From positions 1,295 through 65,294 of the IMG/VR virus record IMGVR_UViG_3300037807_000296: a DNA stretch of 64,000 bases. The stretch is one strand, 5' to 3'. The DNA comes from a virus. Lineage: Duplodnaviria; Caudoviricetes. This document shows, one piece after another, positions 778 through 51,316 of this stretch (position 1 is its first letter; each line of letters begins with the position of its first letter). A program made the position numbers and the translations under genes. The notes beneath the pieces are model-generated. The model was not told the DNA's origin. It searched no databases and saw only the letters and a list, made by a program, of their open reading frames with translations.

Positions 778-2432
778 TTAAGTTTAAGAGTATAACATTC
801 AAAAATGTATTATCGTATGGCAATATTCCAACTACCATAGAATTAGATGTATGCGGAACTTCTCTAATAACGGGAGCTAATGGTTGTGGTAAATCATCAA
901 GTTTATTGGATACATTGTGTTATGGTTTATATGGTAAAGCGTTTAGAAAGATTAATAACATTGATTTGATTAATCGTATTAATAACAAAGCAGCTGAAGT
1001 TGAAATTGTGTTTGATGTAAATGATCGTAATTATATCGTGCGGAGAGGAATGAAACCTACTAAGTTTGATATCACGGTTGATGGAAAACCTCGTAATAAA
1101 GATGCTGCTGTTCGTGATCAACAGGATTGGTTAGAGAGTGTTCTTGGTATGAATGAAAAGAGTTTTAGACAGATTGTTGTCTTAGGCTCAGGTAATTATA
1201 TCCCATTTATGCAGTTATCATCTAATGATAGAAGAAAGGTTATTGAACAGCTTCTTGATATAGAAATATTCTCTAGTATGAATGTTACGTTAAAAGAACA
1301 TGTCCGTATTGTAAAAGATAGTGTAAAATCTACTCAACATGATTATGATATATTAGAAAGAGAAGTTGATGTTAATCGTAAACATATTAATGATAATGAT
1401 GTGAAACGATCTGTGTCATTACAGAAGCTAGATGAAGAAATTAATAAAATTGATGCTGATATTAAAAAACTCAACAACGAGAATAAAGAGTTGAGTTCAA
1501 TTGATACGTCAGATATCAAAGGTAAAATTCGGAAATTAACATCCATTAAAAGTGATGTGGATGCACGGATAAAATCAAATAAAAGTATGATTAAAATTAT
1601 TAATAACGCTAATGGAACTTGTCCTACATGCACCCAGTCTATAAGTGAATCATTTAAAAATAGTTATATATCTGGTAGTGAAAGTGTTATCGATAGGTTA
1701 GAGGAGGGGAAAGTTGAGATGGTTGATGTGCTTGATTCTATGAATGATATGTTAAGTGTCATGGAGTTGAATATGAAAAAGTTATCTGAAAATGAGACTA
1801 TTATTGATCAGAAGTTATCATTGATAACGATGTTAAAAGAATCAGATGCTATTACAGATGACTCTAAGCTTAAAGAGGATGTTAAGTTAAAGGAAGATGA
1901 GTTAAAATTGTTTAGGAGATCATTGAGTAAATATAATAAAACTGCTAATCATTTAAGTGTTATTGAGATTATGTTAAAAGATTCAGGAATTAAGACTAGA
2001 ATCATTAAAAAGTATCTTCCTGTACTTAATGGTATAATTAACAAATATTTACAAGTATTTGAATTTAATGTGATATTGAATTTAGATGAGACGTTTAACG
2101 AGACTATAACACAGAATGGCAGAATAATTTCAGGTTATAATAATTTTAGTGAAGGAGAAAAGCTGAGAGTTGATCTTGCTATTCTATTTTCATTTAGAGA
2201 ACTTGCACGAGTTAAAAACAGCGCAAATACTAATATATTAATATTAGACGAGACTCTTGATAAGTCTATGGATAGTACTGGAGTTGAGCATTTTTTAAAT
2301 ATTATCAGAGAGCAAGATAAATCACATATATTTGTTATATCTCATAAAGATGATATGGCAGGTAATTTTAATAGAAATATCAACGTGACAAAAGATGGTC
2401 AATTTTCTGTTTTAACTGAAACGATGTTGTGA
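774..2432 (+). CDS. 46: Recombination ATPase subunit gp46 (Rad50/SbcC-like)
   Basis: Walker A GANGCGKS, CPTC zinc hook, signature FSEGEK, Walker B LILDE, coiled coil. Confidence 0.95.
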   Translation: MIKFKSITFKNVLSYGNIPTTIELDVCGTSLITGANGCGKSSSLLDTLCYGLYGKAFRKINNIDLINRINNKAAEVEIVFDVNDRNYIVRRGMKPTKFDITVDGKPRNKDAAVRDQQDWLESVLGMNEKSFRQIVVLGSGNYIPFMQLSSNDRRKVIEQLLDIEIFSSMNVTLKEHVRIVKDSVKSTQHDYDILEREVDVNRKHINDNDVKRSVSLQKLDEEINKIDADIKKLNNENKELSSIDTSDIKGKIRKLTSIKSDVDARIKSNKSMIKIINNANGTCPTCTQSISESFKNSYISGSESVIDRLEEGKVEMVDVLDSMNDMLSVMELNMKKLSENETIIDQKLSLITMLKESDAITDDSKLKEDVKLKEDELKLFRRSLSKYNKTANHLSVIEIMLKDSGIKTRIIKKYLPVLNGIINKYLQVFEFNVILNLDETFNETITQNGRIISGYNNFSEGEKLRVDLAILFSFRELARVKNSANTNILILDETLDKSMDSTGVEHFLNIIREQDKSHIFVISHKDDMAGNFNRNINVTKDGQFSVLTETML

Positions 2433-2513
2433 TTTTAATGTAAAATAACAGTTAACATATATAGTAATGTGCTGTATGATTAATAATATAATATAACTAA
2501 TGAGGATTTTAAT

Positions 2514-3170
2514 ATGAAACTATGTAAAACAACCCAAGAAGCTATTAAGAACGTTTCTTCCATTAATCAAAGTATTATTTTTAAAACAGGGGAGAGTAGA
2601 CTTAATACAATATCAGCTGAAAAAAATATATTAGCTTCTATCGCGATTGATGAGACATTCCCAGTTGATTGTGCTATATATGATTTGAATAGTTTCTTAG
2701 GAGCAATTAACTTGTTTGATGATCCTGAATTAACATTTAATGATACTAATGTAATTATATCAGAAGGTAATAATAACTGTGTATTCTATTATACTGATCC
2801 AAGTATAGTTATTTCTCCTCCGGAAAAAGATATTAAACTACCATCATTAGATGTAGAGTTTAATCTTAAAGAAGAATCAATCTACACTCTTCTAAAAGCA
2901 TCAAGTGTTTTAGGAGTTGAGGATATAGTGATTAAAGGAGGAGATGGTAAAATTGTGATGCAAGCTGCTGATATTAAAACCTCTGGATCTAATTCTTTTA
3001 CAATTGAACTCGGAGAATATTCTGGTGGTGTTTTTCAAGCTAGTATTAAAACTTATCATATTAAACTTCTTCCAGGAAGTTATAATATACAAGTATGTCG
3101 AGATGGTATTTCTAAATGGTCTAATGTCAATCGAGATGCTACATATCACGTTGCAATGAGTATGGTGTAA
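2514..3170 (+). CDS. 45: DNA polymerase sliding clamp gp45
   Basis: SINQSI, IYDLNSFL, DPSIV motifs; synteny 46-45-44-62. Confidence 0.92.
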   Translation: MKLCKTTQEAIKNVSSINQSIIFKTGESRLNTISAEKNILASIAIDETFPVDCAIYDLNSFLGAINLFDDPELTFNDTNVIISEGNNNCVFYYTDPSIVISPPEKDIKLPSLDVEFNLKEESIYTLLKASSVLGVEDIVIKGGDGKIVMQAADIKTSGSNSFTIELGEYSGGVFQASIKTYHIKLLPGSYNIQVCRDGISKWSNVNRDATYHVAMSMV

Positions 3171-3433
3171 TGTCGGATTCTAAAAGTAATTATGAAAATA
3201 GCAGTTATGATTGTGAACACTTTATTTACGATTCGTTAATGCCTATGATTAGAAGTGTTGAGGAAAATCAATATCACCGTTATAGTGATGATATGCATGA
3301 TGTGTTTTTAGATGTGTTTTGTATGGCGTATAGTGTAATGCGACATTCAGGTTGGTCTGAAGAGATGATAACTGAACAAATACATAATATAGATAGTAAT
3401 GTTGATTACAGTATTCAGGAAACTATACATTGA
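3170..3433 (+). CDS. Hypothetical protein
   Basis: 87-aa ORF overlapping both neighbours. Confidence 0.6.
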   Translation: MSDSKSNYENSSYDCEHFIYDSLMPMIRSVEENQYHRYSDDMHDVFLDVFCMAYSVMRHSGWSEEMITEQIHNIDSNVDYSIQETIH

Positions 3434-5291: not shown

Positions 5292-5708
5292 ATGACTAGT
5301 AATACAACCAAAGGAATAATTATGAGTACAAGTGAAGATATTTTTAAACAATTTGATGGCGAAAGTTTTGAATTTGGGATTGACTTCGTCGATAGCGTCA
5401 GCAAAGAACAAGAAGTTGATGACATTAAACAAGTAGTATCAGACAGCAATAGTAACCTAGAACATAAATTAGATGGACTAACATCTCACTTAGATCAATT
5501 AGCAGCTAAGATAGACTTTAGCGAATCTAAAGAATTAGTAGAAGCTAATGCGCAGCGCAAGGTGGTTGACATTGTGCAATTGATAGTACCTTTGCTTCGT
5601 AACCTACAAAAATCTCCAGAATCAGATACCATTTATTGGCCTGGTTCTAAGAGGGTGCCGATGATCGATTCTCAGTTAAATAAGATGAAAGTGATATTAG
5701 ATAGTTAA
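5292..5708 (+). CDS. Conserved hypothetical coiled-coil protein
   Basis: 138-aa ORF (start may be 5322, after AAGGA); PLLRNL..SPE..IYWP motif. Confidence 0.65.
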   Translation: MTSNTTKGIIMSTSEDIFKQFDGESFEFGIDFVDSVSKEQEVDDIKQVVSDSNSNLEHKLDGLTSHLDQLAAKIDFSESKELVEANAQRKVVDIVQLIVPLLRNLQKSPESDTIYWPGSKRVPMIDSQLNKMKVILDS

Positions 5709-7003
5709 CTGTCTAGATAGAACCCTAGATCTTTCCACGTCAAACCAACAATATCATCCTCTGTTCCTAAATATTGAAGGTAGTTGTTACGAAGATAAGA
5801 TAATTTGGTTATCACTTGGTTGAAATTTGTCCGTGCTAATCTTATGATCACAGATGGTGATAAGTGTGGTAATTGATCAGCCATTAATACTCCAGTTCTG
5901 AAACACCCTAACTCAATATGACATATGTTACTATATCTAAATCCTTTAGTTTTGGTTGATTTTTTATGAGCTCTCTCAAATGAATTTAAACCAGTATCAT
6001 CCACATCGTTTAATTTTGTGCTAAGCATTTTAATACCAGCTCTCTTAAACGAATTTAAACCATTTTCATCTATATCATCTAATCTAGTGTTGAGGGTTTT
6101 GATACCAACTCTCTGAAACGTATTCAAACCATTTACATCTACATCATTTAATTTAGTCTCATTTCCTTTTCTTGTGTTTCGGATACAAGCATTCAAACCA
6201 TTTTCGTCTATATCATTCAATTTAGTATTAAGCATTTTAACACCAACTCTCTGAAACGTATTCAAACCATTTTCGTCTATATCATTTAGTTTCGTATTAG
6301 ATGCTTTAATACCAACCCTCTGAAATGTATTCAAACCATCTTCGTCTATGTTGTTTAGTTTAGACTCAATCATCCGTTTAGTTGATGGTATTTTAACATT
6401 ATCAATCCAATCAGGATCGTTGTAATGTGATTTAATTTTATCTACAGCTGCTACCCACACTGTAGATTTCCAATCAGGGTTATTGTGATACTTGCTGTTA
6501 CTCTTACCTATCTGGATGCATGCTGGTTTCCACACATCATTAACCCAATTTACATCTTCATGGTGTTTGGATATCTTCAAGCTAGTTCTGTTAAATTCAT
6601 TTAACCCATTATCATCAATATTATTTCTTTTAGTTTCGAGTCCCTTATTAATACTTTCTACTGAATTCATAAACGAGTTAGCATACGATAGATTATAGAA
6701 TAAAGGATTTGAAGCTGCCTCATATTCTCTTTGTAACTTCTCCTCGTAATCTAAACAATCTTTCTTAAACGAAAATGTTTTAACGATAATGCGTTCTAAT
6801 TGAGGGGATTGATTTTTTTGAAGGATCTTGAAATGCTCAACGGTAGAAGATCCAAAGTAAGTATCCTCTTCAGGATTAATATTTTTCTCAATGAGTTCTT
6901 TACGTGTTGAGGAACCAATATAATACTTCTCTGTTCCTATAGGATTGAGATCAGTAATAAGATAAACGTAAAAGTTGGGGCCGCTATAAATAGATGTATA
7001 CAT
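5705..7003 (-). CDS. Free-standing GIY-YIG (Seg-like) endonuclease with tandem repeats, paralog 1
   Basis: YVY...YIG, Arg, Glu and FYN motifs in the first 110 aa; 23-aa and ~21-aa repeats; C-terminal domain ending WKDLGFY. Confidence 0.88.
   Translation of the reverse strand: MYTSIYSGPNFYVYLITDLNPIGTEKYYIGSSTRKELIEKNINPEEDTYFGSSTVEHFKILQKNQSPQLERIIVKTFSFKKDCLDYEEKLQREYEAASNPLFYNLSYANSFMNSVESINKGLETKRNNIDDNGLNEFNRTSLKISKHHEDVNWVNDVWKPACIQIGKSNSKYHNNPDWKSTVWVAAVDKIKSHYNDPDWIDNVKIPSTKRMIESKLNNIDEDGLNTFQRVGIKASNTKLNDIDENGLNTFQRVGVKMLNTKLNDIDENGLNACIRNTRKGNETKLNDVDVNGLNTFQRVGIKTLNTRLDDIDENGLNSFKRAGIKMLSTKLNDVDDTGLNSFERAHKKSTKTKGFRYSNICHIELGCFRTGVLMADQLPHLSPSVIIRLARTNFNQVITKLSYLRNNYLQYLGTEDDIVGLTWKDLGFYLDS
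5948..6637 (-). repeat. Coding repeat array A-B-B-B-A6 (A = 23 aa/69 bp TKLNDIDENGLNxxxRxxxK; B = ~21 aa NDPDW type)
   Basis: Visible in both translation and DNA. Confidence 0.9.
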
Positions 7004-7030: not shown

Positions 7031-7063
7031 AAAGGGATTGATGCTAAGAACATTAATCCTTTT
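7031..7063 (+). terminator. Hairpin plus T-run, conserved upstream of the three GIY-YIG paralogs
   Basis: AAAGGGATTGATG-7nt-CATTAATCCTTTT. Confidence 0.6.
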
Positions 7064-7102: not shown

Positions 7103-7131
7103 TTCACAATTATCGTTTTGTGTGGTATAAT
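7103..7131 (+). promoter_or_regulatory. Sigma70-type promoter for gene 43
   Basis: TTCACA-17-TATAAT with extended TG. Confidence 0.65.
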
Positions 7132-9917: not shown

Positions 9918-9946
9918 TTGACTTTTATCATTTTATATAGTATAAT
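9918..9946 (+). promoter_or_regulatory. Sigma70-type promoter for the uvsX N-half
   Basis: TTGACT-17-TATAAT; SD AAGGAG before ATG 9977. Confidence 0.8.
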
Positions 9947-9976
9947 AATGATAGTATCAATGTAAGGAGATTATAA

Positions 9977-10216
9977 ATGAGTTTGTTAGATAAGTTAAAA
10001 AAAGCTAGTACGATTGAAGATGTTGAGGTTTTGAGTAATTCTGAATTTTTCACTGATAAAGATAATACAGTTACTGAATTACCTATTCTTAATATTGCGT
10101 GTTCAGGACAATTGGATAAAGGTTTCACTTCTGGATTGACTTTAGTCTGTGGGCCTTCAAAACATTTTAAATGTTGTGGACCTGATACACCTATTGTTGT
10201 TTACGTTGCTGATTAG
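9977..10216 (+). CDS. uvsX: UvsX recombinase N-terminal fragment fused to a 14-aa N-intein
   Basis: PILNIACSG...GLTLVCGPSKHFK (Walker A up to Lys), then CCGPDTPIVVYVAD-stop. Confidence 0.92.
   Translation: MSLLDKLKKASTIEDVEVLSNSEFFTDKDNTVTELPILNIACSGQLDKGFTSGLTLVCGPSKHFKCCGPDTPIVVYVAD
10172..10213 (+). mobile_element. Split intein N-fragment (IntN, 14 aa)
   Basis: Block A-like C-x-x-x-D-T-P-I starting exactly at the UvsX breakpoint. Confidence 0.85.
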
Positions 10217-10221
10217 ATTAA

Positions 10222-11106
10222 TTAATTAGCTATTTCATAATAATAAAATCCTAAACTTTTCCAAGTCTTATTTATAGGATTATTGGGGAGGTTTTGAAGG
10301 AATAAACTTCGATTGATGCTGCCTTTACTGATTACAGCATTAAAATCTTGTTTACACAATCTTCGGATAGTTCTCGCTAGTACACTGTAAGTGTGTATCT
10401 CTTTAATAGCGTTTACTAGAGCTTGAGCTGAGTGGAATTCTCCAACTCCCTTGAACCCGTAAAATTTGTAACCGTGTCTTGTCTCTACATGTTTTCGTAT
10501 CTTATCCTTCCCGATAGTCGCTTTCCATTCAGGATCAGTAATAGTTTCAATGTGTTTAGCGGTACTATCCTTTCCTGTAGTTGCTTTCCACTCAGGATCG
10601 TTTCTGGTGTTTATCATTTTAGCTGATTGTTTTTTTCCTGTAGTTGCTTTCCATTCAGGATCAGTAATAGTTTCTAATCTTTTAGCTGATTGTTTTTTTC
10701 CTGTAGTTGCTTTCCATTCAGGATCAGTAATAGTTTCAATGTGTTTAGCGTTTGAATTAAATGATGGGGCAAATCCTTTATTAGCATATCCTTTGTTGTA
10801 GAATAAAGGATTAATAGCTGCTTTGTGTTCTCGTTGTAAATTCTCCTCATAATCTAAACATTCTTTGATGTTATCAAATGTTTCAATTATTACACGTTCT
10901 AATTGAGATGATTGGGTTTTTTGAAGGATCTTAAAATGCTCAACAGAGGATGATCCGTAATAAGTATCCTCTTCAGGATTAATGTTATTTTCTTGTAATT
11001 CTTTACGATAAGAGGAACCAATATAATACTTCTCTGTTCCTATAGGATTGAGGTCAGTGATTAAGTAAACATAAAAGTTAGGGCCGCTATAAATAGATGT
11101 ATACAT
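10222..11106 (-). CDS. GIY-YIG endonuclease paralog 2, lying between the uvsX halves
   Basis: N-terminus nearly identical to 5705..7003; four 21-aa repeats; ends WKSLGFY. Confidence 0.88.
   Translation of the reverse strand: MYTSIYSGPNFYVYLITDLNPIGTEKYYIGSSYRKELQENNINPEEDTYYGSSSVEHFKILQKTQSSQLERVIIETFDNIKECLDYEENLQREHKAAINPLFYNKGYANKGFAPSFNSNAKHIETITDPEWKATTGKKQSAKRLETITDPEWKATTGKKQSAKMINTRNDPEWKATTGKDSTAKHIETITDPEWKATIGKDKIRKHVETRHGYKFYGFKGVGEFHSAQALVNAIKEIHTYSVLARTIRRLCKQDFNAVISKGSINRSLFLQNLPNNPINKTWKSLGFYYYEIAN
10498..10749 (-). repeat. Four 63-bp/21-aa repeats AKxxETITDPEWKATTGKxxx
   Basis: Visible directly. Confidence 0.92.
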
Positions 11107-11133
11107 TGCAATACGTCCTTATTGTTGTGTTAG

Positions 11134-11166
11134 AAAGGGATTAATGTTCGAATCATTAATCCTTTT
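11134..11166 (+). terminator. Conserved hairpin plus T-run
   Basis: AAAGGGATTAATG-TTCGAAT-CATTAATCCTTTT. Confidence 0.65.
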
Positions 11167-11180
11167 TATTTATCTTTATG

Positions 11181-11209
11181 TTGACATTTATCGTTTAATG
11201 TTGTATAAT
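11181..11209 (+). promoter_or_regulatory. Consensus sigma70 promoter for the uvsX C-half
   Basis: TTGACA-17-TATAAT; SD GGAG before ATG 11244. Confidence 0.85.
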
Positions 11210-11243
11210 TATATTAATGTTAATGATATTATGGAGAAAGTGA

Positions 11244-11627
11244 ATGAAGCGGTTAAAATTAACGTATAAAGAGTTGTATGAGTTGATTGAAAAAGATCAG
11301 ATGATAGAATATCATGTTAAGGATCATAACGGAGAATTTACAAAGGTTATAGGTATCAATAAGAAACAATCTGATACATATGATATCGATATCTCAGATG
11401 GTGCTATTAAGATGACTGTTGGTGATCGGCATGCTTTTATGAATTCAATCGGTAATGCTGTTGTTACAGAAGATTTAGTCCCAGGTGATCAATTAAAATC
11501 ATTACATGGAAATTTACTAGTCACATCTGTTGACAATTTCAAGAAAGATCAAGAAGTGTATGATATAGCTATATCAGATCCACATTGGTATACTAATGAT
11601 GATAGTCATGGATTAATTCATCATAAT
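11244..11627 (+). mobile_element. Split intein C-fragment (IntC, 128 aa)
   Basis: Ends GLIHHN|S(+1). Confidence 0.88.
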
Positions 11628-12458
11628 AGTTTAGTTTCTTTACAATTCGTTTCTGCTTATATGGGTAAGCATAAAGATGCTGTATGTTTATTTTACGATT
11701 CAGAATTCGGTATGCCTGAGAATTACTTCACATCTAATGATGTAGATGTTGATAGAGTTATACATCTTCCAGTCAAGAATATTGAGGAGTTGAAGTTTGA
11801 TATCATGCAACAGTTAGAAGCTATCAGCAAAGATGATAAGGTTATAATCTTTATTGATAGTATCGGTAATCTATCCAGTAAGAAGGAAATGGATGATGCT
11901 ATTGATGGAAAATCAGTTGCTGATATGTCAAGAGCTAAGATGTTGAAATCGTTATTCCGTATGGTTACTCCTTATCTAACAATGAAGGATATTCCTATGA
12001 TTGCTGTTAATCATGTATATAATGAGATTGGTTTATATCCTAAAGCTATCGTTGGAGGAGGGCAGGGTGTGTACCTCTCAGCTGACACAATCTTCATCAT
12101 GGGAAGACGTCAGAATAAGAAGGGTACTGAGGTTAAGGGTTATGATTTTATCATGAACATTGAGAAAAGTCGATATGTTAGGGAGAAGTCTAAGTTACCT
12201 ATAACAGTATCATGGGAAGGTGGTATTGATAAGTATTCAGGATTGCTTGAGATTGCTAGACAGTTGGAGTATGTTACCTCACCTAAGAATGGATGGTATA
12301 CTAGACCCATGATTGAGGGTGATAAGAACTGGAGAGCGGGAGATTCATCGTGTGCTGAGTTTTGGGATCCATTATTGTTGAGTGATGAATTTAAAACAGC
12401 TATTACACGTTCTTATGAAGTGGGTAGCTCTCCTATGGAAGGTGATATGGATGAGTGA
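11244..12458 (+). CDS. uvsX: 128-aa C-intein fused to the UvsX C-terminal part
   Basis: Intein block B (TVGDRH), block F (VYDI), terminal HN then S; extein carries CLFYDSEFG, IFIDSIGNL, VGGGQG, IEKSR. Confidence 0.93.
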   Translation: MKRLKLTYKELYELIEKDQMIEYHVKDHNGEFTKVIGINKKQSDTYDIDISDGAIKMTVGDRHAFMNSIGNAVVTEDLVPGDQLKSLHGNLLVTSVDNFKKDQEVYDIAISDPHWYTNDDSHGLIHHNSLVSLQFVSAYMGKHKDAVCLFYDSEFGMPENYFTSNDVDVDRVIHLPVKNIEELKFDIMQQLEAISKDDKVIIFIDSIGNLSSKKEMDDAIDGKSVADMSRAKMLKSLFRMVTPYLTMKDIPMIAVNHVYNEIGLYPKAIVGGGQGVYLSADTIFIMGRRQNKKGTEVKGYDFIMNIEKSRYVREKSKLPITVSWEGGIDKYSGLLEIARQLEYVTSPKNGWYTRPMIEGDKNWRAGDSSCAEFWDPLLLSDEFKTAITRSYEVGSSPMEGDMDE

Positions 12459-13280: not shown

Positions 13281-14639
13281 ATGATCACAACTGAAAATGT
13301 TATAATATCTGAGTTATTGACTAACGTTGATTATCTTCAAAGAGTGATCGCACATATTAGACCAGAATATTTTCATGATGCAGCAGAGAGAGTGGTTCTA
13401 GAAGAGATTATAAAATATACAATTAAATATGGCAATGCTCCTAGTAAAGATGCTCTTGCTATTAATATTGATTCTCGAGATGATCTTAATGAGCAGCAAT
13501 ATATTAATGTGATTGATGTATTGGAAAATTTATCTGAAGAATCTCATGATAATGATTGGCTTATAGATGCAACAGATCAGTTTATCAAAGATAAGAGTGT
13601 ATATAATGCTGTAATGGAAAGTATCTCTATTATTGATGATAATGAAAAGCCTAATACATCCCTCCCTGATATACTGAGTGATGCGTTATCTGTATCTTTA
13701 GATGATCATGTTGGTCATGATTATTTGGATGATATTGAAGAACGATATGATTTTTATCATAACGTAGAGGAACGTATACCGTGTGATCTAAGCCGATTGA
13801 ATGTGGCAATGAAAGGGGGAGCACCTAAAAAAACGTTAAACTGTGCTATGGCGGGTACAAACGTGGGGAAAACAGTATTTTTATGTTCATTAGCGGCATC
13901 TTATTTAAAACAACATAAAAATGTGTTGTATATTACGATGGAGATGGCTGAGGAACGTATTGCTGAACGTATTGATGCTAATATTCTAAAAACCCCAATG
14001 GATGAGTTGGAACATCTTGATAGAGATATGTACACCACAAAATTTAAGAATGCTATGAGTAATGTGAAAGGTAATCTTATTGTAAAGGAATACCCTACAG
14101 GTGCAGCATCTGCAGCAACGTTTAGAGGGTTGTTAAAGGAATTGAAAATAAAGAAGGATTTTACTCCGGATATTCTTTTAATTGATTATCTAGCGATCTG
14201 CTCTTCTACTAGATATAGTGGAGTGTCGGAGAATAGTTATCATTTCGTTAAAGCAGTCGCAGAAGAGTTGCGGGGATTAGCGATTGAATGTAATGTTCCA
14301 ATATGGACAGCAGCTCAAACGAATCGTGGTGCATTTAACGATTCTGATCCTGATATGACAAGTATTGCTGAATGTATATACGTAGAAGAGCAGGTTGAGT
14401 TAGTTAATGGTGATTTCATTGCTATTAAAGATGTTGAAATTGGTGATAAGATTTTAGATAATGAGATGTATAAGACTGTGGTGACTACTCATCACGTGAA
14501 ACCTAAAGATTGTGTTAAGATCACATTAAAATCGGGGAAAACTATCATTGTATCTAAGCAACACGTTTTCCCTACTAAGAGTGGTCGTAAATCGATAGAT
14601 TTAGGGTTGTGTGTTGGGGATAGATTGAATACTAAATGA
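13281..14639 (+). CDS. 41: Replicative helicase gp41 N-terminal part fused to an 88-aa N-intein
   Basis: AGTNVGKT, ITMEMAE, LIDYL, AAQTNR; after SIAE the sequence switches to intein CIYVEEQV...SKQHVFPT. Confidence 0.94.
   Translation: MITTENVIISELLTNVDYLQRVIAHIRPEYFHDAAERVVLEEIIKYTIKYGNAPSKDALAINIDSRDDLNEQQYINVIDVLENLSEESHDNDWLIDATDQFIKDKSVYNAVMESISIIDDNEKPNTSLPDILSDALSVSLDDHVGHDYLDDIEERYDFYHNVEERIPCDLSRLNVAMKGGAPKKTLNCAMAGTNVGKTVFLCSLAASYLKQHKNVLYITMEMAEERIAERIDANILKTPMDELEHLDRDMYTTKFKNAMSNVKGNLIVKEYPTGAASAATFRGLLKELKIKKDFTPDILLIDYLAICSSTRYSGVSENSYHFVKAVAEELRGLAIECNVPIWTAAQTNRGAFNDSDPDMTSIAECIYVEEQVELVNGDFIAIKDVEIGDKILDNEMYKTVVTTHHVKPKDCVKITLKSGKTIIVSKQHVFPTKSGRKSIDLGLCVGDRLNTK
14373..14636 (+). 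mobile_element. Split intein IntN (88 aa) in gp41
   Basis: Cys1, IKDVEIGDKI, block B SxxH. Confidence 0.9.
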
Positions 14640-14692: not shown

Positions 14693-15244
14693 ATGACACA
14701 AAAAGAGTTTGAGCAGGATTGTTATGAAAAAGCGCAAAAATATATACAAGGTGGATTGGTACACGCTGGTACTGATTTATTAAACCTCACTGAAGTGTTT
14801 ATATCTATGGGTCAAGAGCATTTGGATAGAATGTTATTATCTGACTCTAAAATAGATTATAATGATGAGATAGTTGCTATTGAAGAGGTGGGAGTTAAGG
14901 ATACTGTGGATATTTCAGTTACTGGAGATCATCTTTTCTATTGTAATGGCATATTAACGAAAAATTCATTTGGACTTGCTGCCACTCTCGATTTCCTCAT
15001 TTCATTAACGACTAATGATGAGTTATCTGAGATGGGTCAAATTAAATTCAAAACTATTAAAAATAGGTATACTGAGGATAAAAAATCATTTATGGTGAAT
15101 GTTGATTTCCCTCGAATGACATTCTCTGATGTTGATGATATATCTACTAACTATTCAGTATCACCCCAAACTCAAGATTTGATGTCTAATAAACCTACAT
15201 TTAACTCTAGAGTTAGTAAATTTGATAGTATCGTTGTTAATTGA
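14693..15244 (+). CDS. 41: C-intein fused to the gp41 C-terminal part
   Basis: DEIVAIEEVG..TVDISVTGDHLFYCNGILTKN|SFGLAATLDF...IKNRY. Confidence 0.92.
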   Translation: MTQKEFEQDCYEKAQKYIQGGLVHAGTDLLNLTEVFISMGQEHLDRMLLSDSKIDYNDEIVAIEEVGVKDTVDISVTGDHLFYCNGILTKNSFGLAATLDFLISLTTNDELSEMGQIKFKTIKNRYTEDKKSFMVNVDFPRMTFSDVDDISTNYSVSPQTQDLMSNKPTFNSRVSKFDSIVVN

Positions 15245-19332: not shown

Positions 19333-20532
19333 ATGTATACGTTTAAAGAATATATAGATCTGAATGAAGGGGGTAATATAACAATCCCTGATATACATGG
19401 AGTTGAGCATGATGCAGCTCGTATCCCATTAGAGGATATTGGCCGTAAAACATTTGTTGAATCTTTCCAAAAATTTTTCTTAAAGCTTAATACTATATTC
19501 GAGAAAGAGTATAATTATCCTCTATGGCCGGATACTGGGGAAATCACTAATGCTGGTATCTTTAACGGCTCCACTAGTTTCATTATGAGTGCTGATTACT
19601 CTGATGAAGAAGTGCTTAAATATAAAAAAACTGCTGGTGATATTGATGTTGCATTCCCTCGAGAATATGGTCCTGATCTATATAACTTACTTCTTAAACT
19701 TAGAGGAAAGGAGTTGGTTCCGGGATTAGAGTATATAGGGAATAACGCTAAAACTCAAGATAAATTAGGCAATACTATAATATGTATAGTGAAAGCTCGT
19801 TATGGTGATATAGAAGTATCTGCTCAAGTAGATATGGAATTATCAGAATTCGTACAAGGTAAACAAACCGATTGGAGTGCTCATATACACTCGAGTAGCT
19901 TTGAAGACGCTAAGGCAGGAATTAAAGGAGCAGCATCAAAATTCTTATGGAGAGCGTTGATTGGGATCACTTCACAAGTAACAGATAACTTCTTAGAAGC
20001 GACACCATCTAGTACACCTGATAAGATAACAATCAAAAAGAAACAGCCTGCTTACTTGAGTCTTATAGTGTATGGAGGAGAAGCAGGTGTTGGTACGAAT
20101 CCTGCATATGAGTTAATGGTTGATTCAAAGAATAAACCTATCTTAGTAAATGGGAAGAGGGTGTTCCGTAAGCTGAAGCCTAAAGAGAGGACTTATGATA
20201 GAAATCTAGGAAACCTCATTAAGATAGCATTTGGGGGCAAGATTGATTCTAAGAAGATACCTAAGAAGGAGTTAGATAGTTTTGTTAAGACATTAGCGAT
20301 AGCTAATAAGTATCTTGATAAAAAGAGTAAGGAAGATGTGAATTATAGGTTCATGTTAATATTGTTTGGAGAAGATGGAAGGACACAAACTATTGAGCCT
20401 AAAAATCCAAGAGAGGATTTAGAGATTAAGATGGCTATGTATAATAAACTAATTGAACTCTTGAAAATTAAAGCACATCCGCAATTAGAGGCTAAGGTTA
20501 ATATGTACATGAAGGTTATGCATAAGTCATAA
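19333..20532 (+). CDS. Pol-beta superfamily nucleotidyltransferase
   Basis: NGS...GDIDV and QVD motifs; begins MYTFKEYIDLNE. Confidence 0.68.
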   Translation: MYTFKEYIDLNEGGNITIPDIHGVEHDAARIPLEDIGRKTFVESFQKFFLKLNTIFEKEYNYPLWPDTGEITNAGIFNGSTSFIMSADYSDEEVLKYKKTAGDIDVAFPREYGPDLYNLLLKLRGKELVPGLEYIGNNAKTQDKLGNTIICIVKARYGDIEVSAQVDMELSEFVQGKQTDWSAHIHSSSFEDAKAGIKGAASKFLWRALIGITSQVTDNFLEATPSSTPDKITIKKKQPAYLSLIVYGGEAGVGTNPAYELMVDSKNKPILVNGKRVFRKLKPKERTYDRNLGNLIKIAFGGKIDSKKIPKKELDSFVKTLAIANKYLDKKSKEDVNYRFMLILFGEDGRTQTIEPKNPREDLEIKMAMYNKLIELLKIKAHPQLEAKVNMYMKVMHKS

Positions 20533-21837
20533 TTTAACATCTTCGTAATAATAAAACCCTAAATCGTGATATGATTTACCAGTAGGATCATCTTCTAGGG
20601 ACTGGAGAAATGGACTATTCCCTCTTCTCGTGATGATTGTTTTGAAATTACTTTTAGCTAATTCATGAATACGAGATGAGCTCAAACTACATCCGTAATG
20701 TTTTTTAATAGCAGCAGCGAGTGCTTTAGGAGTGTGAACAACCTCCACTCCTTTAAATCCGTAACACTTGTGACCACATAACGTTTTACTTCTCTTCTGT
20801 GCAGCGTCTTTTCCGGTAGTATTTTTCCATTTTACATTATTTACAGTTTTGATGTGTTTAATAGCACCTCGTTCATGAGAATTCAATCCACTATCGTCTA
20901 TATCATTTAATTTAGTGTATTTAGTTTTAATAGCACCTCGTTCATGAGAATTCAATCCACTATCGTCTATATCATTTAATTTAGTGTATTTAGTTTTAAT
21001 AACACCTCGTTCATAAGAATTCAATCCATTATCATCTATATTATTTAATTTAGTTTCACTTATTTTAAATACACTTCTTTGGTATGAATTTAATCCATCA
21101 TCATCTATATTATTTAATCGAGATGCACAAGTTTTAGCACCAGCTCTTTGATAAGAGTTCAATCCATCGTTGATATCATTTAATCTAGTTTCTTTTACTT
21201 TAAATGCACTTCTTTGATTTGTATTCAATCCGTCATCATCGATGTCATTTAATTTAGTTTCTTTTACTTTAAATGCACTTCTTTGATAAGAGTTTAATCC
21301 ATCATCATCGATATCATTTAATCTAGTTTCTTTTGCTTTAACTCCAACTCTTTGATAAGAGTTCAATCCGTTACTATCTATATCTTTTAATCTCGTTGTG
21401 TTAGATTTAAGGATAGCTCTTTCAAATACATTTAATCCATTCTCATCCACATTAGTGAGTTTTGTTTTTACTGTTTTCAGTTGCGATTCAGCAGTTGTTG
21501 AGAATCCACGATTAGCATAACATTTGTTGTAGAATAAAGGATTGGAAGCGGCATCATGATCTCTTTGTATCTTCTCCTCATAATCTAAACATCTTTTCTT
21601 AGAAGAAAATGTTTTAATAATAATGCGTTCTAATTGAGGTGATTTGGATTTTTGAAGAGCTCTAAAATGTTTAACAGAAGAAGACCCAAAATAAGTATCT
21701 AGTTCTGGATTTATGTTATTCTCTTGTAGCTCTTTACGATGTGATGACCCAATATAATACATCTCTGTTCCTATAGGATTGAGATCAGTAATAAGATAAA
21801 CGTAAAAGTTGAGGCCGTTATAAATAGATGTATGCAT
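20527..21837 (-). CDS. GIY-YIG endonuclease paralog 3 with tandem repeats
   Basis: Same N-terminal nuclease domain; nine A-type repeats plus one B-type; ends YHDLGFY. Confidence 0.88.
   Translation of the reverse strand: MHTSIYNGLNFYVYLITDLNPIGTEMYYIGSSHRKELQENNINPELDTYFGSSSVKHFRALQKSKSPQLERIIIKTFSSKKRCLDYEEKIQRDHDAASNPLFYNKCYANRGFSTTAESQLKTVKTKLTNVDENGLNVFERAILKSNTTRLKDIDSNGLNSYQRVGVKAKETRLNDIDDDGLNSYQRSAFKVKETKLNDIDDDGLNTNQRSAFKVKETRLNDINDGLNSYQRAGAKTCASRLNNIDDDGLNSYQRSVFKISETKLNNIDDNGLNSYERGVIKTKYTKLNDIDDSGLNSHERGAIKTKYTKLNDIDDSGLNSHERGAIKHIKTVNNVKWKNTTGKDAAQKRSKTLCGHKCYGFKGVEVVHTPKALAAAIKKHYGCSLSSSRIHELAKSNFKTIITRRGNSPFLQSLEDDPTGKSYHDLGFYYYEDVKL
20788..21468 (-). repeat. Coding repeat array A9-B (69-bp unit)
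   Basis: TKLNDIDDxGLNSxxRxxxK repeated. Confidence 0.9.
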
Positions 21838-35386: not shown

Positions 35387-37072
35387 ATGAACGATTATCA
35401 AAAATTTATAGCATTATCAAGATATGCTAGATGGTTACCTGAAGAGAAACGGAGAGAGCACTGGAGTGAGACAGTTGCTCGATATTTTGATTTTTTCACA
35501 AATCATTTAAAAGAAATTCATGAATATGATCTCACATCAAATGATCGTGAAGTATTAGAGGTTGCTATTAACAATCTTGATGTGATGCCATCAATGCGTT
35601 GTATGATGACAGCTGGAGATGCTCTCAAAAAGAATAATATAGCTGGATACAATTGCTCATATGTTGCTATTGATCACCCAAAAGCATTTGATGAAATTTT
35701 GTTCATTTTGATGCATGGAACTGGTGTGGGATTTTCTGTAGAGCGTCAGTTTATCCAGAAGCTCCATGAAATCCCGGAATTAGAATTAACAGGCTCCGTT
35801 ATTCAGGTAGCTGATAGTAAAGAAGGGTGGCAGAAGGGTTTGAGGAGATTGTTTCAACATTTGTGGGATGGGGAGATTCCTACATGGGATCTATCCAAGA
35901 TTAGAGAGAAGGGAGCGAGACTTAAAACGTTTGGGGGAAGAGCTAGTGGTCCTCAGCCATTAGAAGACCTTTTTCAGTTCACTGTACAGATGTTTAAAGG
36001 TGCTCAAAATCGTAAGTTGACATCTGTTGAGTGTCATCGGATTGCTTGTAAGATCGCAGAGGTTGTTGTGGTTGGGGGAGTTAGAAGAAGTGCTTTGATA
36101 TCCCTTTCCAATTTGAGTGATGAACGGATGAGACATGCTAAGTCAGGGCAATGGTGGGTTGACACACCAGAAATGGGTTTAGCTAATAATAGTGTATGTT
36201 ACACAGAGAAGCCTGATATCGGTATTTTTATGATTGAGTGGACTAGTTTATACGAATCTAAGTCAGGGGAACGTGGTATCTTTAACCGTGAAGCAGCGTA
36301 TAAACATCTCCCAGCTCGACGCAGAGAGCAATATGATGGTAAAGATCTACCTTTATACGGGACAAACCCCTGCAGCGAGATAGTTTTGCAAGATGGTCAA
36401 TTTTGTAATCTATCTGAGGTAGTATTAAGGACTAATGATACATTAGATGACATCCGATCTAAAGTTAAGCTTGCTGCTATATTAGGTACTATGCAAGCAA
36501 CATTAACAAATATTAAAGGTCTCCGTGCTAAATGGAAACAAGCTACTGTAGAGGAAGCTCTTCTAGGAGTTTCATTGACCGGTATTATGGATCACACATT
36601 CATGAATGGATCTAAAAAAACGGTGGAAGGTTTATCATTGCCTGATTTTTTGTCTGAGATAAAAGATATTGCAGTTTCTGTTAATGAGGAGTGGGCTAAT
36701 AAGTTTGGTATTAATCCTGCTATGGCTGCTACAGCAATCAAACCCAGTGGATGTACAACGTTAAACACTAAAATCAAAACAACTTCTGGTGATATGAGTA
36801 TGGCAGATATATTCATAGCTAATAAAGTTGAAGATGTTTTCAGTTTAAAACCTAATACATGGATTGAACCAATTATCGATGTTAAAGTTTATGATGAAAA
36901 TAATGATGAGCAATTGATAACAAAACTTTTTATTAATGGTTTATCAGATGTATATGAAGTAGAGTTTAATAATGAAAAATATAAATTTACAGGAAATCAT
37001 AAACTAAAGACGGTTGATGGATGGAAAAGAGTTGATGAAATAACTATAGATGATGATGTTATACAGTTGTAA
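35387..37072 (+). CDS. nrdJ: Class II (B12-dependent) ribonucleotide reductase N-part fused to a 106-aa N-intein
   Basis: PSMR, YNCS, GGVRRSA, TNPCSE, AIKPSG then intein CTTLNT...FTGNH. Confidence 0.94.
   Translation: MNDYQKFIALSRYARWLPEEKRREHWSETVARYFDFFTNHLKEIHEYDLTSNDREVLEVAINNLDVMPSMRCMMTAGDALKKNNIAGYNCSYVAIDHPKAFDEILFILMHGTGVGFSVERQFIQKLHEIPELELTGSVIQVADSKEGWQKGLRRLFQHLWDGEIPTWDLSKIREKGARLKTFGGRASGPQPLEDLFQFTVQMFKGAQNRKLTSVECHRIACKIAEVVVVGGVRRSALISLSNLSDERMRHAKSGQWWVDTPEMGLANNSVCYTEKPDIGIFMIEWTSLYESKSGERGIFNREAAYKHLPARRREQYDGKDLPLYGTNPCSEIVLQDGQFCNLSEVVLRTNDTLDDIRSKVKLAAILGTMQATLTNIKGLRAKWKQATVEEALLGVSLTGIMDHTFMNGSKKTVEGLSLPDFLSEIKDIAVSVNEEWANKFGINPAMAATAIKPSGCTTLNTKIKTTSGDMSMADIFIANKVEDVFSLKPNTWIEPIIDVKVYDENNDEQLITKLFINGLSDVYEVEFNNEKYKFTGNHKLKTVDGWKRVDEITIDDDVIQL
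36752..37069 (+). mobile_element. Split intein IntN (106 aa) in NrdJ
   Basis: Cys1 after PSG; block B TxNH; GWKRVDEI. Confidence 0.9.
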
Positions 37073-37128: not shown

Positions 37129-37711
37129 ATGGAGTATGTACCGTATGTTTACATTATAAAGAATATAACAACTCAATTAAAATATATCGGAGTTCGGTAT
37201 GCTCTGATTATTTGAATATGTGTTTTAGTTCAGGACTTCAAGATTTGAGAATAAACTCTAAAGCGGGAAAGGTAGGAGGGGCGATAGTTAAGGCTAAGGG
37301 TGTTGGAATTTTTAGAGATTATAGTGAAAGACTTGAATGGGCTAAGATGGGTGGAAAAGCAAGCATGAAAGCTGGGAAGCTTGAATATGAAGAAACAGGA
37401 AAAAAGAATTTTTATTGTTGGTCAACTGTTGCTGGAAGGAAAGAAAGATCTAGTTTAGGTGGAAAGAATGGAGCTTTTTCAGTTAATTATATTATGAAAA
37501 CACATAATTGCTCTGAAAAAACAGCAATAGAAATTTTAAAAGAAGAGCAATCTATTAGAGGGACAATAGGTGGTAAAGGAAATAAAGGTTTTATTTGGAT
37601 AACTGATGGTATAAAAACATTCAAATACACTAAAAATATTAAAATGAAAAACACATTGACGTTTTTCTAGATGAAAATTCAAACTATAAAAAAGGTAGAA
37701 TACTTAAATGA
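37129..37711 (+). pseudogene. Decayed GIY-YIG homing endonuclease between the nrdJ halves
   Basis: MEYVPYVYIIKN..KYIGVR stops after 28 codons; second frame carries YLN, GGK repeats, WITDG; third frame ends YKKGRILK. Confidence 0.8.
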
Positions 37712-38394
37712 AAATAACAGCTATTACAAAATTAGATGTGCAAGAATTTACAGTTGATGTTGAAGTGGACAATACCCATTCGTATCAATTAAACAACGGT
37801 TGTGTGTCACATAATACGGTCAGTCAATTAGTTGACTCTGCATCTGGTATCCACGCTAGACATAATCCTTATTACATCCGTAGAGTTAGAGCTGATGCTA
37901 AAGACCCTCTTGCAGAGTTGATGGTAGATGCTGGTGTTCCAATGGAATCAGATGTGATGGCAAAGGGTAATGTTAATGTATTCTCGTTCCCTATGAAAGC
38001 TCCTAAAAATGCTGTATTTAGAGAAGATCGGACAGCTATTGAGCAGTTAGAGTTATGGTTGACATATCAGCAAAATTGGACAGAGCATAAACCATCTATT
38101 ACAGTATCAGTAAAGGAACATGAGTGGATGGATGTTGGAGCGTGGGTGTATAAGCATTTTGATGATTGTTCTGGTGTATCATTCTTACCATTCTCAGAAC
38201 ATTCTTATGCTCAAGCACCGTATGAGGATATTGATAAAGAGACTTATGATGAGCTATTAAGTAAAATGCCGAAGAGTATTGATTGGACTCAAATTGTTAA
38301 GTATGAATCTGATGATTCAGCATTGAAGAATACCAAAGAGCTTGCTTGTAGTGCTGGTGTTTGTGAAGTAGTTGACTTAGTTGCTGATGAATGA
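37708..38394 (+). CDS. nrdJ: 36-aa C-intein fused to the NrdJ C-terminal part
   Basis: VDVEVDNTHSY..VSHN|TVSQLVDSASGIH; HKPSIT, QAPYE, terminal CSAGVC. Confidence 0.94.
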   Translation: MKITAITKLDVQEFTVDVEVDNTHSYQLNNGCVSHNTVSQLVDSASGIHARHNPYYIRRVRADAKDPLAELMVDAGVPMESDVMAKGNVNVFSFPMKAPKNAVFREDRTAIEQLELWLTYQQNWTEHKPSITVSVKEHEWMDVGAWVYKHFDDCSGVSFLPFSEHSYAQAPYEDIDKETYDELLSKMPKSIDWTQIVKYESDDSALKNTKELACSAGVCEVVDLVADE

Positions 38395-38827
38395 TTGGTT
38401 GTATGATGATGTAAAATTCACAACAGATGATATTGGTGATGCTATAGGGTTTGTCTATAGGATCACTAATACGCAGAATGGGATGGATTACATCGGTAAG
38501 AAGAATTTCTGGCGGAAGGTGACTAAGCCTCCTCTTAAAGGAAAGAAACGAAAGCGACGATCTATAGTGGAATCTGATTGGCAGGTATATCATGGTTCAT
38601 CTAACAAATTGTTATCTGATATAGATGGATATGGTTACGATGCATTTAATCGGGAGATTTTGTGTCTGTGTACATCTAAATCAATGATGAGTTATATCGA
38701 GTTATGGTATCAAATGAAAGAAGGTGTGTTGTTTAGTGATATGTCGTATAATGGTATCATCAACATTAGGATTAATTCTTCAGCTATTAAAAAGGATAAA
38801 GAGTTTATATTAAATGAGACAAAATAA
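38387..38827 (+). CDS. GIY-YIG nuclease (single-domain type conserved in T4-like phages)
   Basis: GFVY...YIGKK, ESDW..YHGSS, YNG. Confidence 0.8.
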   Translation: MNDWLYDDVKFTTDDIGDAIGFVYRITNTQNGMDYIGKKNFWRKVTKPPLKGKKRKRRSIVESDWQVYHGSSNKLLSDIDGYGYDAFNREILCLCTSKSMMSYIELWYQMKEGVLFSDMSYNGIINIRINSSAIKKDKEFILNETK

Positions 38828-50130: not shown

Positions 50131-50466
50131 ATGACATATGATGTTAAATATAACTCGATTGATGAAAACAGTCAAATAGAAGTTTTAAGGGTGTATATAG
50201 ATATTGAATTCTTATCTGATGTACCAGTGATAATAAATATAATAGACGAGTCTGGTAAAAAATATGGTTCATTAAGTCATATTAACCATCCTAGTTTTGA
50301 AGCAACTAGAACTCTACTAGAGGAAAAAGGATATTTGCTAGTAGAAAGGGGATGGTGTAATGGTGATGTAATATTAAGAGATTTTTATTTCAATGATAAG
50401 TTACTTAAAGCAGGCACGAGTTTTTATTCAGCAGTTGCTATGGGTATACGCTCTCAGTTTAATTGA
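50131..50466 (+). CDS. Hypothetical protein
   Basis: SD GGAGG before ATG 50131. Confidence 0.6.
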   Translation: MTYDVKYNSIDENSQIEVLRVYIDIEFLSDVPVIINIIDESGKKYGSLSHINHPSFEATRTLLEEKGYLLVERGWCNGDVILRDFYFNDKLLKAGTSFYSAVAMGIRSQFN

Positions 50467-51316
50467 TATCAAATTTCATTAACATTTCGGAACCGACAGA
50501 AGATAATGGATTCATTGCTAAAGCATATCTATTGATGATTCCGATGTTATCTTGCATAGATTTGGAGAATGTGCTTGTTACAATTTCTTGTTGATAAGTT
50601 CCCATTATTAAAGATGAAGAAGCACCGAATTCATCATTTTCCTCTTTAAGTCCTATGAACGCTTTAGTTGCACTAATGTCTGGATTTACATAGTATAGAG
50701 TTTTACCTACACGTCCAACTATTAATCTTTTGCTTCTAGATGTTACATATTCACTTCCTCCAATATACGCATTCAATGCTGATATACTAGCAGCTGCTTT
50801 ATATGGAAGGATAACAAAGGCATCATACGTTCGGAAATTAGGTGTATTCATTTTCATCACTAATTCTTGTACCCTCTGAGTGATCTCGAATAATGATGTT
50901 TCAGAGCTTCCTTTATCTGATAATGTTAAAACTGGTGTAGATAATGAGTTATTATCGAGATAATTTAGTAACGTATAATCTTCATTTGATTCTACTATAC
51001 TCTTCAATAATTTACTTGCATAATTTTGTCCTGTATCTCCATATTGAATAGATATATCTTTAATAGCTTCTGTAGATAAACCAGTTTGTAGTGGGTTAGA
51101 TGTATCGGTATTTACTTGAAGAACACTTTCAACTGCTTCATAAGCATTTGAACCAGTTTGTTTCTTAATGTTTATTATCTTACCACTTGGTAATTTCATT
51201 GGTACTATAGTAGCAATTTCACGCATTAATGATAAAGTTGGAAGCTCCTGAAAATTTGTGATTACATCATTAAAATTATATTGAGCTGCATTGTTTACTA
51301 TTGTATTTTCGTTCAT
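50459..51316 (-). CDS. Short gp23/gp24-like (HK97-fold) capsid protein paralog
   Basis: IATIVPMKLPSGKI and IINRYALAMNPL resemble gp23 motifs; GATAAATA upstream on the minus strand. Confidence 0.65.
   Translation of the reverse strand: MNENTIVNNAAQYNFNDVITNFQELPTLSLMREIATIVPMKLPSGKIINIKKQTGSNAYEAVESVLQVNTDTSNPLQTGLSTEAIKDISIQYGDTGQNYASKLLKSIVESNEDYTLLNYLDNNSLSTPVLTLSDKGSSETSLFEITQRVQELVMKMNTPNFRTYDAFVILPYKAAASISALNAYIGGSEYVTSRSKRLIVGRVGKTLYYVNPDISATKAFIGLKEENDEFGASSSLIMGTYQQEIVTSTFSKSMQDNIGIINRYALAMNPLSSVGSEMLMKFDIN

Follow-up and report, generated by a model that had tools for sequence, protein, structure and literature searches.

The shortest N-terminal fragments (IntN) characterised in natural, atypically split inteins belong to PolB16 OarG (15 amino acids [aa], termed "record-short") and VidaL (16 aa), within a range of 15 to 37 aa given in the accessible text of two papers (PMC13014065, PMC10189870). 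VidaL and PolB16 OarG are split immediately after β-strand 2, at the site called S1, and the AceL TerL (25 aa) and GOS TerL (37 aa) inteins are split after the first helix (S2), according to the excerpts of PMC13014065 that cover them. Here we describe a uvsX gene that is divided inside its Walker A motif (P-loop) by a predicted intein of the S1 kind, with an IntN of 14 aa and a C-terminal fragment (IntC) of 128 aa. The gene occupies positions 9977 to 12458 of the 64,000-nucleotide stretch that was analysed (the window), which comes from the tailed-phage record IMGVR_UViG_3300037807_000296 of IMG/VR.

As far as the available excerpts describe these systems, the closest is VidaL (PDB 6vgv/6vgw), a cysteine-dependent natural split intein that resembles the uvsX intein in fold, in the S1 split site, and in Cys1; it differs in sequence (only 19% identity) and in the length of its IntN (16 aa versus 14 aa here). 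PolB16 OarG shares the S1 split and an IntN short enough for peptide synthesis, but it has Ser1/Ser+1, a PolB polymerase host, and a 168-aa IntC, whereas the window has Cys1/Ser+1, the UvsX P-loop, and a 128-aa IntC. AceL TerL and GOS TerL are likewise natural short-IntN split inteins of metagenomic phage genes (PMC13014065); they differ in being split at S2, in having a longer IntN, and in residing in terminase rather than UvsX. The fractured genes of Dassa et al. (2009; PMC2677866) have halves that keep their locus and orientation, as in uvsX, but the inteins there are canonically split, and that of the window atypically. In the portions of that paper available to us, UvsX is absent from the eight fractured host types and appears only as a neighboring open reading frame (ORF), and the 3' ends of the endonuclease genes overlap the downstream half. 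In the window, by contrast, the endonuclease gene runs antisense and a separate promoter precedes the C-half, although the co-oriented, overlapping form does occur in relatives such as L003 and L018.

A literature search, with supplement lists outside its scope, found no paper describing a split UvsX intein. Metagenomic inteins called VidaL T4Lh-1 and VidaL UvsX-2 have reportedly been named in work by Neugebauer in 2017 and Burton in 2020; if the name VidaL UvsX-2 is correct, a UvsX intein of the split kind has already been published.

The two halves of uvsX

The first ORF (ORF1; 9977 to 10216, plus strand, 79 aa) runs to ...GPSKHFK, then CCGPDTPIVVYVAD and a stop. The second (ORF2; 11244 to 12458, plus strand, 404 aa) opens with 128 aa that end in ...GLIHHN and continues with SLVSLQF.... 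The features of the two halves, all on the plus strand, are as follows.

9918 to 9946, plus: sigma-70-like promoter ahead of the N-half, TTGACT-17-TATAAT, 11 of 12 consensus matches, TTTATC spacer class
9964 to 9969, plus: Shine-Dalgarno sequence AAGGAG, 7 nucleotides (nt) ahead of the ORF1 ATG, read directly
9977 to 10171, plus: UvsX N-extein, residues 1 to 65, ending in Walker A GPSKHFK (ORF list, phrog_97, T4 UvsX alignment)
10172 to 10216, plus: predicted IntN, 14 aa (CCGPDTPIVVYVAD) and TAG stop, with the block A Cys1 (reading frame, alignment, docking)
11181 to 11209, plus: sigma-70-like promoter ahead of the C-half, perfect TTGACA-17-TATAAT, 12 of 12 consensus matches
11233 to 11236, plus: Shine-Dalgarno sequence GGAG, 7 nt ahead of the ORF2 ATG, read directly
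11244 to 11627, plus: predicted IntC, 128 aa, with block B His63, block F Asp107/His114, and block G His127-Asn128 (alignments, model)
11628 to 12458, plus: UvsX C-extein, 276 aa and stop, whose first residue, Ser+1, is the Walker A serine (alignments)

Against the PHROG family phrog_97 (UvsX-like recombinase), ORF1 residues 1 to 65 correspond to positions 21 to 86 and ORF2 residues 129 to 381 to positions 87 to 331. On T4 UvsX (3io5), ORF1 residues 30 to 65 align to chain positions 6 to 41, with K65 at 41, and ORF2 residues 131 to 396 align to 44 to 317 (E = 6.1e-93), with V131 at 44; ORF2 S129 therefore stands at 42 and is the Walker A serine. ORF1 C66 falls at this same serine position (chain 42), the place that S129 fills. 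The exteins abut exactly (phrog_97, 86/87; T4 UvsX chain, 41/42), and the 14 + 128 residues are therefore a precise insert between the P-loop lysine and serine. A preliminary description, made from the letters of the window, had placed the break at GPSKHFK/S, with a 14-aa tail on ORF1 and a 128-aa start of ORF2 carrying blocks B, F, and G and ending in HN/S; reading frames and both alignments bear out the break, and all of these parts are present.

The same description had given each half a sigma-70 promoter and a Shine-Dalgarno sequence of its own, and the sites listed above agree with it. Promoter-like sites with at most one mismatch number 6 across the window versus 2.07 expected, a count that was reached in 2 of 100 shuffles. 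Both uvsX sites belong to one promoter class with a TTTATC spacer, which also includes the sites at 7103 and 51382.

Evidence for an intein

The catalytic residues of the intein are conserved among the relatives. Cys1, Thr6, and Ile8 of the IntN (ORF1 C66, T71, and I73) are invariant in all eight aligned N-parts; H63, D107, H114, H127, and N128 of the IntC are invariant in all 12 aligned rows, and H63, H127, and N128 remain so in all 48 rows of a larger alignment. The +1 residue is Ser in the window and Thr or Ser in relatives. Searched against PDB, a profile of the clade matched the inteins gp41-1 (E = 6.6e-6), DnaE (8.1e-6), and VidaL (2e-5); a single-sequence phmmer search of the IntC against PDB returned nothing significant.

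The AlphaFold2 model of the IntC, built on the 48-row alignment, had a predicted local distance difference test score (pLDDT) of 94.7. Its top PDB match in Foldseek was the VidaL intein 6vgv (query-normalised TM-score, 0.82; root mean square deviation, 1.8 Å; 19% identity), and it had 46 PDB matches at E ≤ 1e-3, of which all those listed are inteins or intein-like domains. When ORF1 and the IntC were predicted as a complex, the interaction prediction score from aligned errors (ipSAE) was 0.73, versus 0.00 for the best control; 58 of 80 solved complexes attain this mark, as do 2 of 110 mismatched pairs. At least 72% of contacts agreed between runs, and the predicted interface brought ORF1 residues 64 to 79 against IntC residues 1 to 9, 21 to 26, 57 to 64, 103 to 108, and 126 to 128. 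A single-sequence AlphaFold2 model of a contiguous intein (L002:3938-4402) had a pLDDT of 31 and was discarded. Judged from these alignments and models, the insert is most likely a HINT-fold class-1 mini-intein of 14 + 128 = 142 aa.

Split site and relatives

The break was located by comparison with contiguous relatives (L002, P0005, P0007, P0014, P0016, and P0055), which are collinear with IntN plus IntC; L002 is a 497-aa UvsX carrying a cis mini-intein 48% identical to the IntC. The window's IntN aligns to the first 14 intein residues of these relatives and Met1 of the IntC to the next residue of the L002 intein; nothing was therefore lost or gained at the break. The break sits in a loop of variable length among the contiguous forms, and this is the loop after the second β-strand, the S1 site of VidaL and PolB16. 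By alignment and model, the uvsX intein is thus classed as an S1-type atypically split intein, and the reading of an atypically split intein in the UvsX Walker A motif, already proposed in the preliminary description, gains from extein abutment, invariant residues, a VidaL-like fold model, docking, and collinear contiguous relatives alike.

An exhaustive HMMER search of 1.84 billion representatives revealed 59 IntC relatives at E ≤ 1e-3. Counting as split those whose intein starts at most 20 residues from the protein start, 41 begin with the IntC, 15 have an internal intein, and 3 are partial or unclassifiable. The IntC is followed by a UvsX/RecA-like C-extein in 17 of the 41 and by other exteins in 24. 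Ten of the latter proteins were sampled, and the extein matched a family in six: DnaB-like helicases in four, a ResIII helicase in one, and an AAA ATPase in one. Each of these matches begins early in the family profile, at positions 12 to 38, probably just after the Walker A motif. Context scans covered 46 matched stretches (44 loci) in IMG/VR and 99 stretches (49 loci) in metagenome contigs. A word-based protein search with the IntC returned only the window's own protein, and tblastn of the IntC against 50,697 phage records gave only two weak matches, to terminase in Salmonella phage CRW-SP2 and Vibrio phage vB_VmeM-32; by this search, no isolated phage in the collection has this intein.

The closest UvsX clade (...[FY]K/C...) yielded 11 distinct N-fragments, including that of the window, of 12 to 19 aa.

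12 aa: L003/L004
13 aa: L007/L008
14 aa: window; L006 = L052; L009/L010/L054
15 aa: L048; L050
16 aa: L047; L055
19 aa: L051; P0062

Compared with the window's fragment, two are shorter, two others are equal, and six are longer. Cyanophage-like UvsX genes (GK/CARG...) carry the same intein with an IntN of 24 to 28 aa. The earlier placement of 14 aa at the extreme short end of natural IntN holds against characterised inteins (15 to 37 aa) but not within its own clade: the fragment is one residue below the characterised record and ordinary, near the middle of the clade's range. The split uvsX intein is real but fairly ordinary, in that the arrangement is widespread and its kind has already been described.

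Split and contiguous forms were compared on a tree, made by a quick maximum-likelihood run on 135 columns and with many open forks, that covers 84 distinct intein sequences (from 105 full-length matches), of which the start-offset rule labels 69 as split and 15 as contiguous. The split/contiguous label required 14 changes on this tree, 7 of them forced by starred branches, versus a mean of 14.1 for shuffled labels. The labels are no more clustered than shuffled ones and the two forms are interleaved, from which it follows that splitting or re-fusion at the S1 loop occurred repeatedly. One row labelled contiguous, the metagenome contig L049, is really an endonuclease ORF in frame into the IntC: at about 1540 to 3375, an endonuclease-like ORF continues without a stop into the IntC-UvsX ORF, and the stop-to-stop frame places the IntC at residue 486. 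This could be a fused endonuclease-IntC form or a pair of overlapping genes in one frame.

A second intein lies further along UvsX, after ...SGG/C, in many relatives (P0002, P0003, P0007, P0015, and P0055; L003 to L005). It is canonically split, the ORF ending inside its IntN, so that those relatives would have to join three pieces to make UvsX. In the window, UvsX has no interruption at this site.

Origin and recurrence of the locus

The window is nearly the whole of a 65,294-base IMG/VR virus contig with an estimated completeness of 37% and a guanine-plus-cytosine content (of the window) of 33.6%. T4-type replication genes are present. Within the collection of 50,697 records, no phage has a DNA polymerase more than about 37% identical to the one encoded here, the top matches being cyanophages, and blastn of the locus against isolated phages matched only the UvsX core, at about 65%. 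A 2.6-kb stretch recurs nearly word for word in 20 public runs from 14 studies, all of them marine or seawater metagenomes dated 2012 to 2025 and six of them RNA libraries. The host of the split uvsX is therefore an abundant, uncultured, marine, T4-like phage.

This recurrence also bears on whether the layout might stem from misassembly or be undone at the RNA level, either of which had been named in the preliminary description as what would overturn its reading. The exact ORF1 protein is recorded on 67 contigs and the ORF2 cluster on 40. Contigs of the four runs X11, X12, X13, and X14, from four studies, bridge the ORF1 stop and the 3' end of the endonuclease gene with 0 differences, and one contig (X11 record 6) bridges the endonuclease start and ORF2. 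No joint skipping any part of the locus occurs in the contigs of the four runs, which reveal variants that are present rather than variants that are absent, and no Rfam family, and so no known intron, matched the locus at E ≤ 1. Neither concern is supported by these data, and the split layout is not a one-off assembly error.

The endonuclease cassette in the gap

The interval between the halves contains the following features.

10222 to 11106, minus: putative homing endonuclease gene of GIY-YIG type (294 aa), free-standing and antisense to uvsX (PHROG, Pfam, paralogs)
10504 to 10750, minus: 63-nt tandem repeat, 3.9 copies, encoding repeats of about 21 aa, inside the endonuclease gene
11133 to 11167, plus: 14-bp hairpin followed by a T-run, terminator-like on the plus strand and a hairpin of the endonuclease 5' untranslated region on the minus strand

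The antisense nuclease that had been noted here is supported by a match of the 294-aa minus-strand ORF to phrog_314 ("homing endonuclease"; 2.6e-13). The match to Pfam SegE_GIY-YIG is weak (E = 0.007; 17 bits, below the cut-off of 25); YVY...YIG motifs can be found by eye. The endonuclease stop lies 5 nt from the ORF1 stop. The window has two paralogs, at 20527 to 21837 (minus; 71% identical over the first 125 aa) and at 5705 to 7003 (minus; 52% identical over 220 aa, the first 33 residues being the same). All three share their N- and C-terminal domains and differ in the central part, where tandem repeats of about 21 aa lie (such as ..TDPEWKATTGK.. versus ..DIDDDGLNSYQR..), which may be modular DNA-binding repeats that set target specificity. 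Metagenome contigs break within the tandem repeat of the gap endonuclease, where coverage also dips.

Conservation among the three copies extends beyond the coding sequence. Rightward of each start codon, about 100 nt of DNA that include the hairpin are conserved in all three, and in two of them (uvsX and the 5705-to-7003 paralog) the alignment continues through the sigma-70-like promoter. On the plus strand, the hairpin folds with -15 kcal/mol (z = -3.27). Sequestration of the endonuclease ribosome binding site was considered and rejected, as the minus-strand fold leaves that site outside the main hairpin, and no claim is made for a T4 late promoter of the endonuclease gene, for which the candidate (GATAAATA at 11174, minus strand) is only a 7-of-8 match. 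The sequence TATAAATA, which we take to be the T4 late-promoter consensus, occurs on the plus strand at 11089 to 11096, 6986 to 6993, and 21820 to 21827, inside codons 4 to 6 of all three endonuclease genes, and in each copy points at the downstream plus-strand gene; it could be a late promoter or a mere consequence of conserved coding sequence. Beside the 5705-to-7003 paralog, the promoter-like site at 7103 to 7131 leaves only 6 nt to the ATG at which the DNA polymerase probably starts (7138, MIKNKN...). With this spacing, either the polymerase message is nearly leaderless or the polymerase starts elsewhere; its listed TTG start at 7063 overlaps the cassette.

The gaps of relatives vary widely. 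Some contain co-oriented ORFs matching phrog_22677 or HNH or homing-endonuclease PHROGs, or an ORF matching Pfam MTES_1575 below its cut-off; others hold truncated remnants, ORFs of about 330 aa that carry no annotation, or a mere spacer of 18 to 209 nt. The gap ORFs of the cyanophage-like relatives L018, L029, and L024 had no Pfam or PHROG match. Since the same loop is broken in relatives that have a different endonuclease or lack one, the break probably predates the GIY-YIG cassette, that is, the split probably came first and the cassette second.

Proposed mechanism and alternatives

From the sequences and structure models, we consider it highly probable that uvsX is a "fractured gene" with an S1-split class-1 mini-intein, that its halves are separately expressed, and that predicted trans-splicing restores UvsX; the intein is most likely active. 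Transcription of the two halves would start at separate promoters of one phage class, and each half would be translated on its own. The 14-aa IntN would dock as strands onto the IntC and complete the HINT fold, and Cys1, Ser+1, and Asn128 would carry out trans-splicing, giving a UvsX of 341 aa in which the P-loop (GPSKHFK-S) is intact. The 1-kb gap would represent one copy of a GIY-YIG cassette (antisense ORF and hairpin, with the outward promoter in two of three copies), of which the window has two more; the cassette hairpin would stop read-through from the N-half, and the cassette promoter would restart the C-half.

Several observations weigh against this account. Throughout the clade, Gly or Ala stands in place of the block B Thr (Gly in the window, at His-3). 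Pfam Intein_splicing (PF14890) matches the IntC weakly (16.4 bits; cut-off, 35.8), although the clade profile does match PDB inteins. In the predicted complex, the pLDDT of the IntN-side partner is only about 51, and because VidaL is solved, the docking pass may partly reflect memory of a similar complex. On the side of expression, the promoter and terminator calls are consensus matches only; the RNA-library contigs span both halves but cannot prove transcription, starts, or ends; and the hairpin has compensatory changes in 2 of 14 pairs and 0 broken pairs across three sequences only. The order of split and cassette is read from relatives.

The weak Pfam match and the missing block B Thr, in a genome heavily invaded by endonucleases, are what one might also see in a decayed relic whose intein halves no longer splice and whose UvsX is lost or dispensable. 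We regard such decay as improbable: relatives of 24 to 55% identity keep all nucleophiles and the residues of blocks B, F, and G without change, both ORFs are intact and each has a promoter and a Shine-Dalgarno sequence, near-identical sequence persists in runs of 14 studies from 2012 to 2025, the fold model is a confident one, and the two fragments pass the docking prediction.

Alternatively, the UvsX pieces might assemble noncovalently and work without splicing, as in the endonuclease-fractured NrdA of phage Aeh1 in the available text of PMC2677866, where endonuclease-fractured genes without inteins are described; the intein fragments could then be a mere dimerisation handle. This strikes us as very unlikely for a break inside the P-loop that leaves the Walker A Lys and Ser 142 foreign residues apart, and binding would not require the conserved Cys1, Asn128, and Ser/Thr+1, which only the chemistry needs. 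Because the nucleophiles are invariant, either a decayed or a merely noncovalent arrangement is hard to accept.

A chimeric assembly, a frameshift introduced by sequencing, or an intron (joining at the RNA level) that restores one ORF, as might be suspected of a metagenomic contig when contigs of other runs break inside the endonuclease repeats, is scarcely credible given junctions covered without differences or joints by independent contigs of four runs, exact proteins on 40 to 67 contigs, the lack of any Rfam family at E ≤ 1, an intervening gene that is antisense and intact, and dozens of relatives that share the layout.

Other fractured genes in the window

A gp41/DnaB-like helicase gene (13281 to 14639 and 14693 to 15244) is also intein-split, in the canonical way. 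Its N-extein, residues 1 to 364, corresponds to positions 160 to 523 of phrog_19 and is followed by an 88-aa IntN starting with Cys; the gap is 53 nt and has no endonuclease gene. The 91-aa IntC, unusually long and without the penultimate His, ends in ..ILTKN, followed by Ser, and the C-extein corresponds to phrog_19 positions 522 to 589.

The third fractured gene (35387 to 37072, 37212 to 37670, and 37708 to 38394) encodes a B12-dependent (class II) ribonucleotide reductase. Its N-half (Pfam RNR-II_ins_dom and Ribonuc_red_lgC) ends in an IntN after ...KPSG/C, the gap holds a 152-aa ORF of no known family, and the C-half starts with a 36-aa IntC ending in ..CVSHN, followed by Thr. A SegE-type GIY-YIG endonuclease gene (38381 to 38827; Pfam E = 3.5e-34) comes directly after, and overlaps, the reductase C-half. 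Elsewhere in the window, a 285-aa ORF on the minus strand among plus-strand genes (50459 to 51316) has a weak Gp23 major capsid match (Pfam E = 7.4e-5, below cut-off).

Significance

Short-IntN split inteins are sought for protein semisynthesis, where the N-fragment can be made as a peptide. The locus and its relatives supply natural candidates with an IntN of 12 to 14 aa and a VidaL-like predicted fold, compared with 15 to 16 aa for the shortest characterised in the papers available to us in part, and trying them out would therefore cost little. The more interesting points are the relatives with 12 and 13 aa, the repeated switching between split and contiguous forms, and the cassette with its own hairpin and promoter.

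For the phage, sequence and modeling would have a recombinase whose P-loop is completed only after translation, within a genome in which three replication or repair genes are fractured. The homing-endonuclease cassette appears to carry the hairpin and promoter that keep a fractured gene expressed. We tentatively suggest, while regarding it as rather doubtful, that the UvsX P-loop clade harbors the shortest natural N-fragments (12 to 14 aa) and that its S1 loop has been repeatedly split and re-fused, enabled by the terminator hairpin and outward promoter of the cassettes themselves. If true, an essential gene can be fractured by portable endonuclease cassettes while its downstream half is still expressed.

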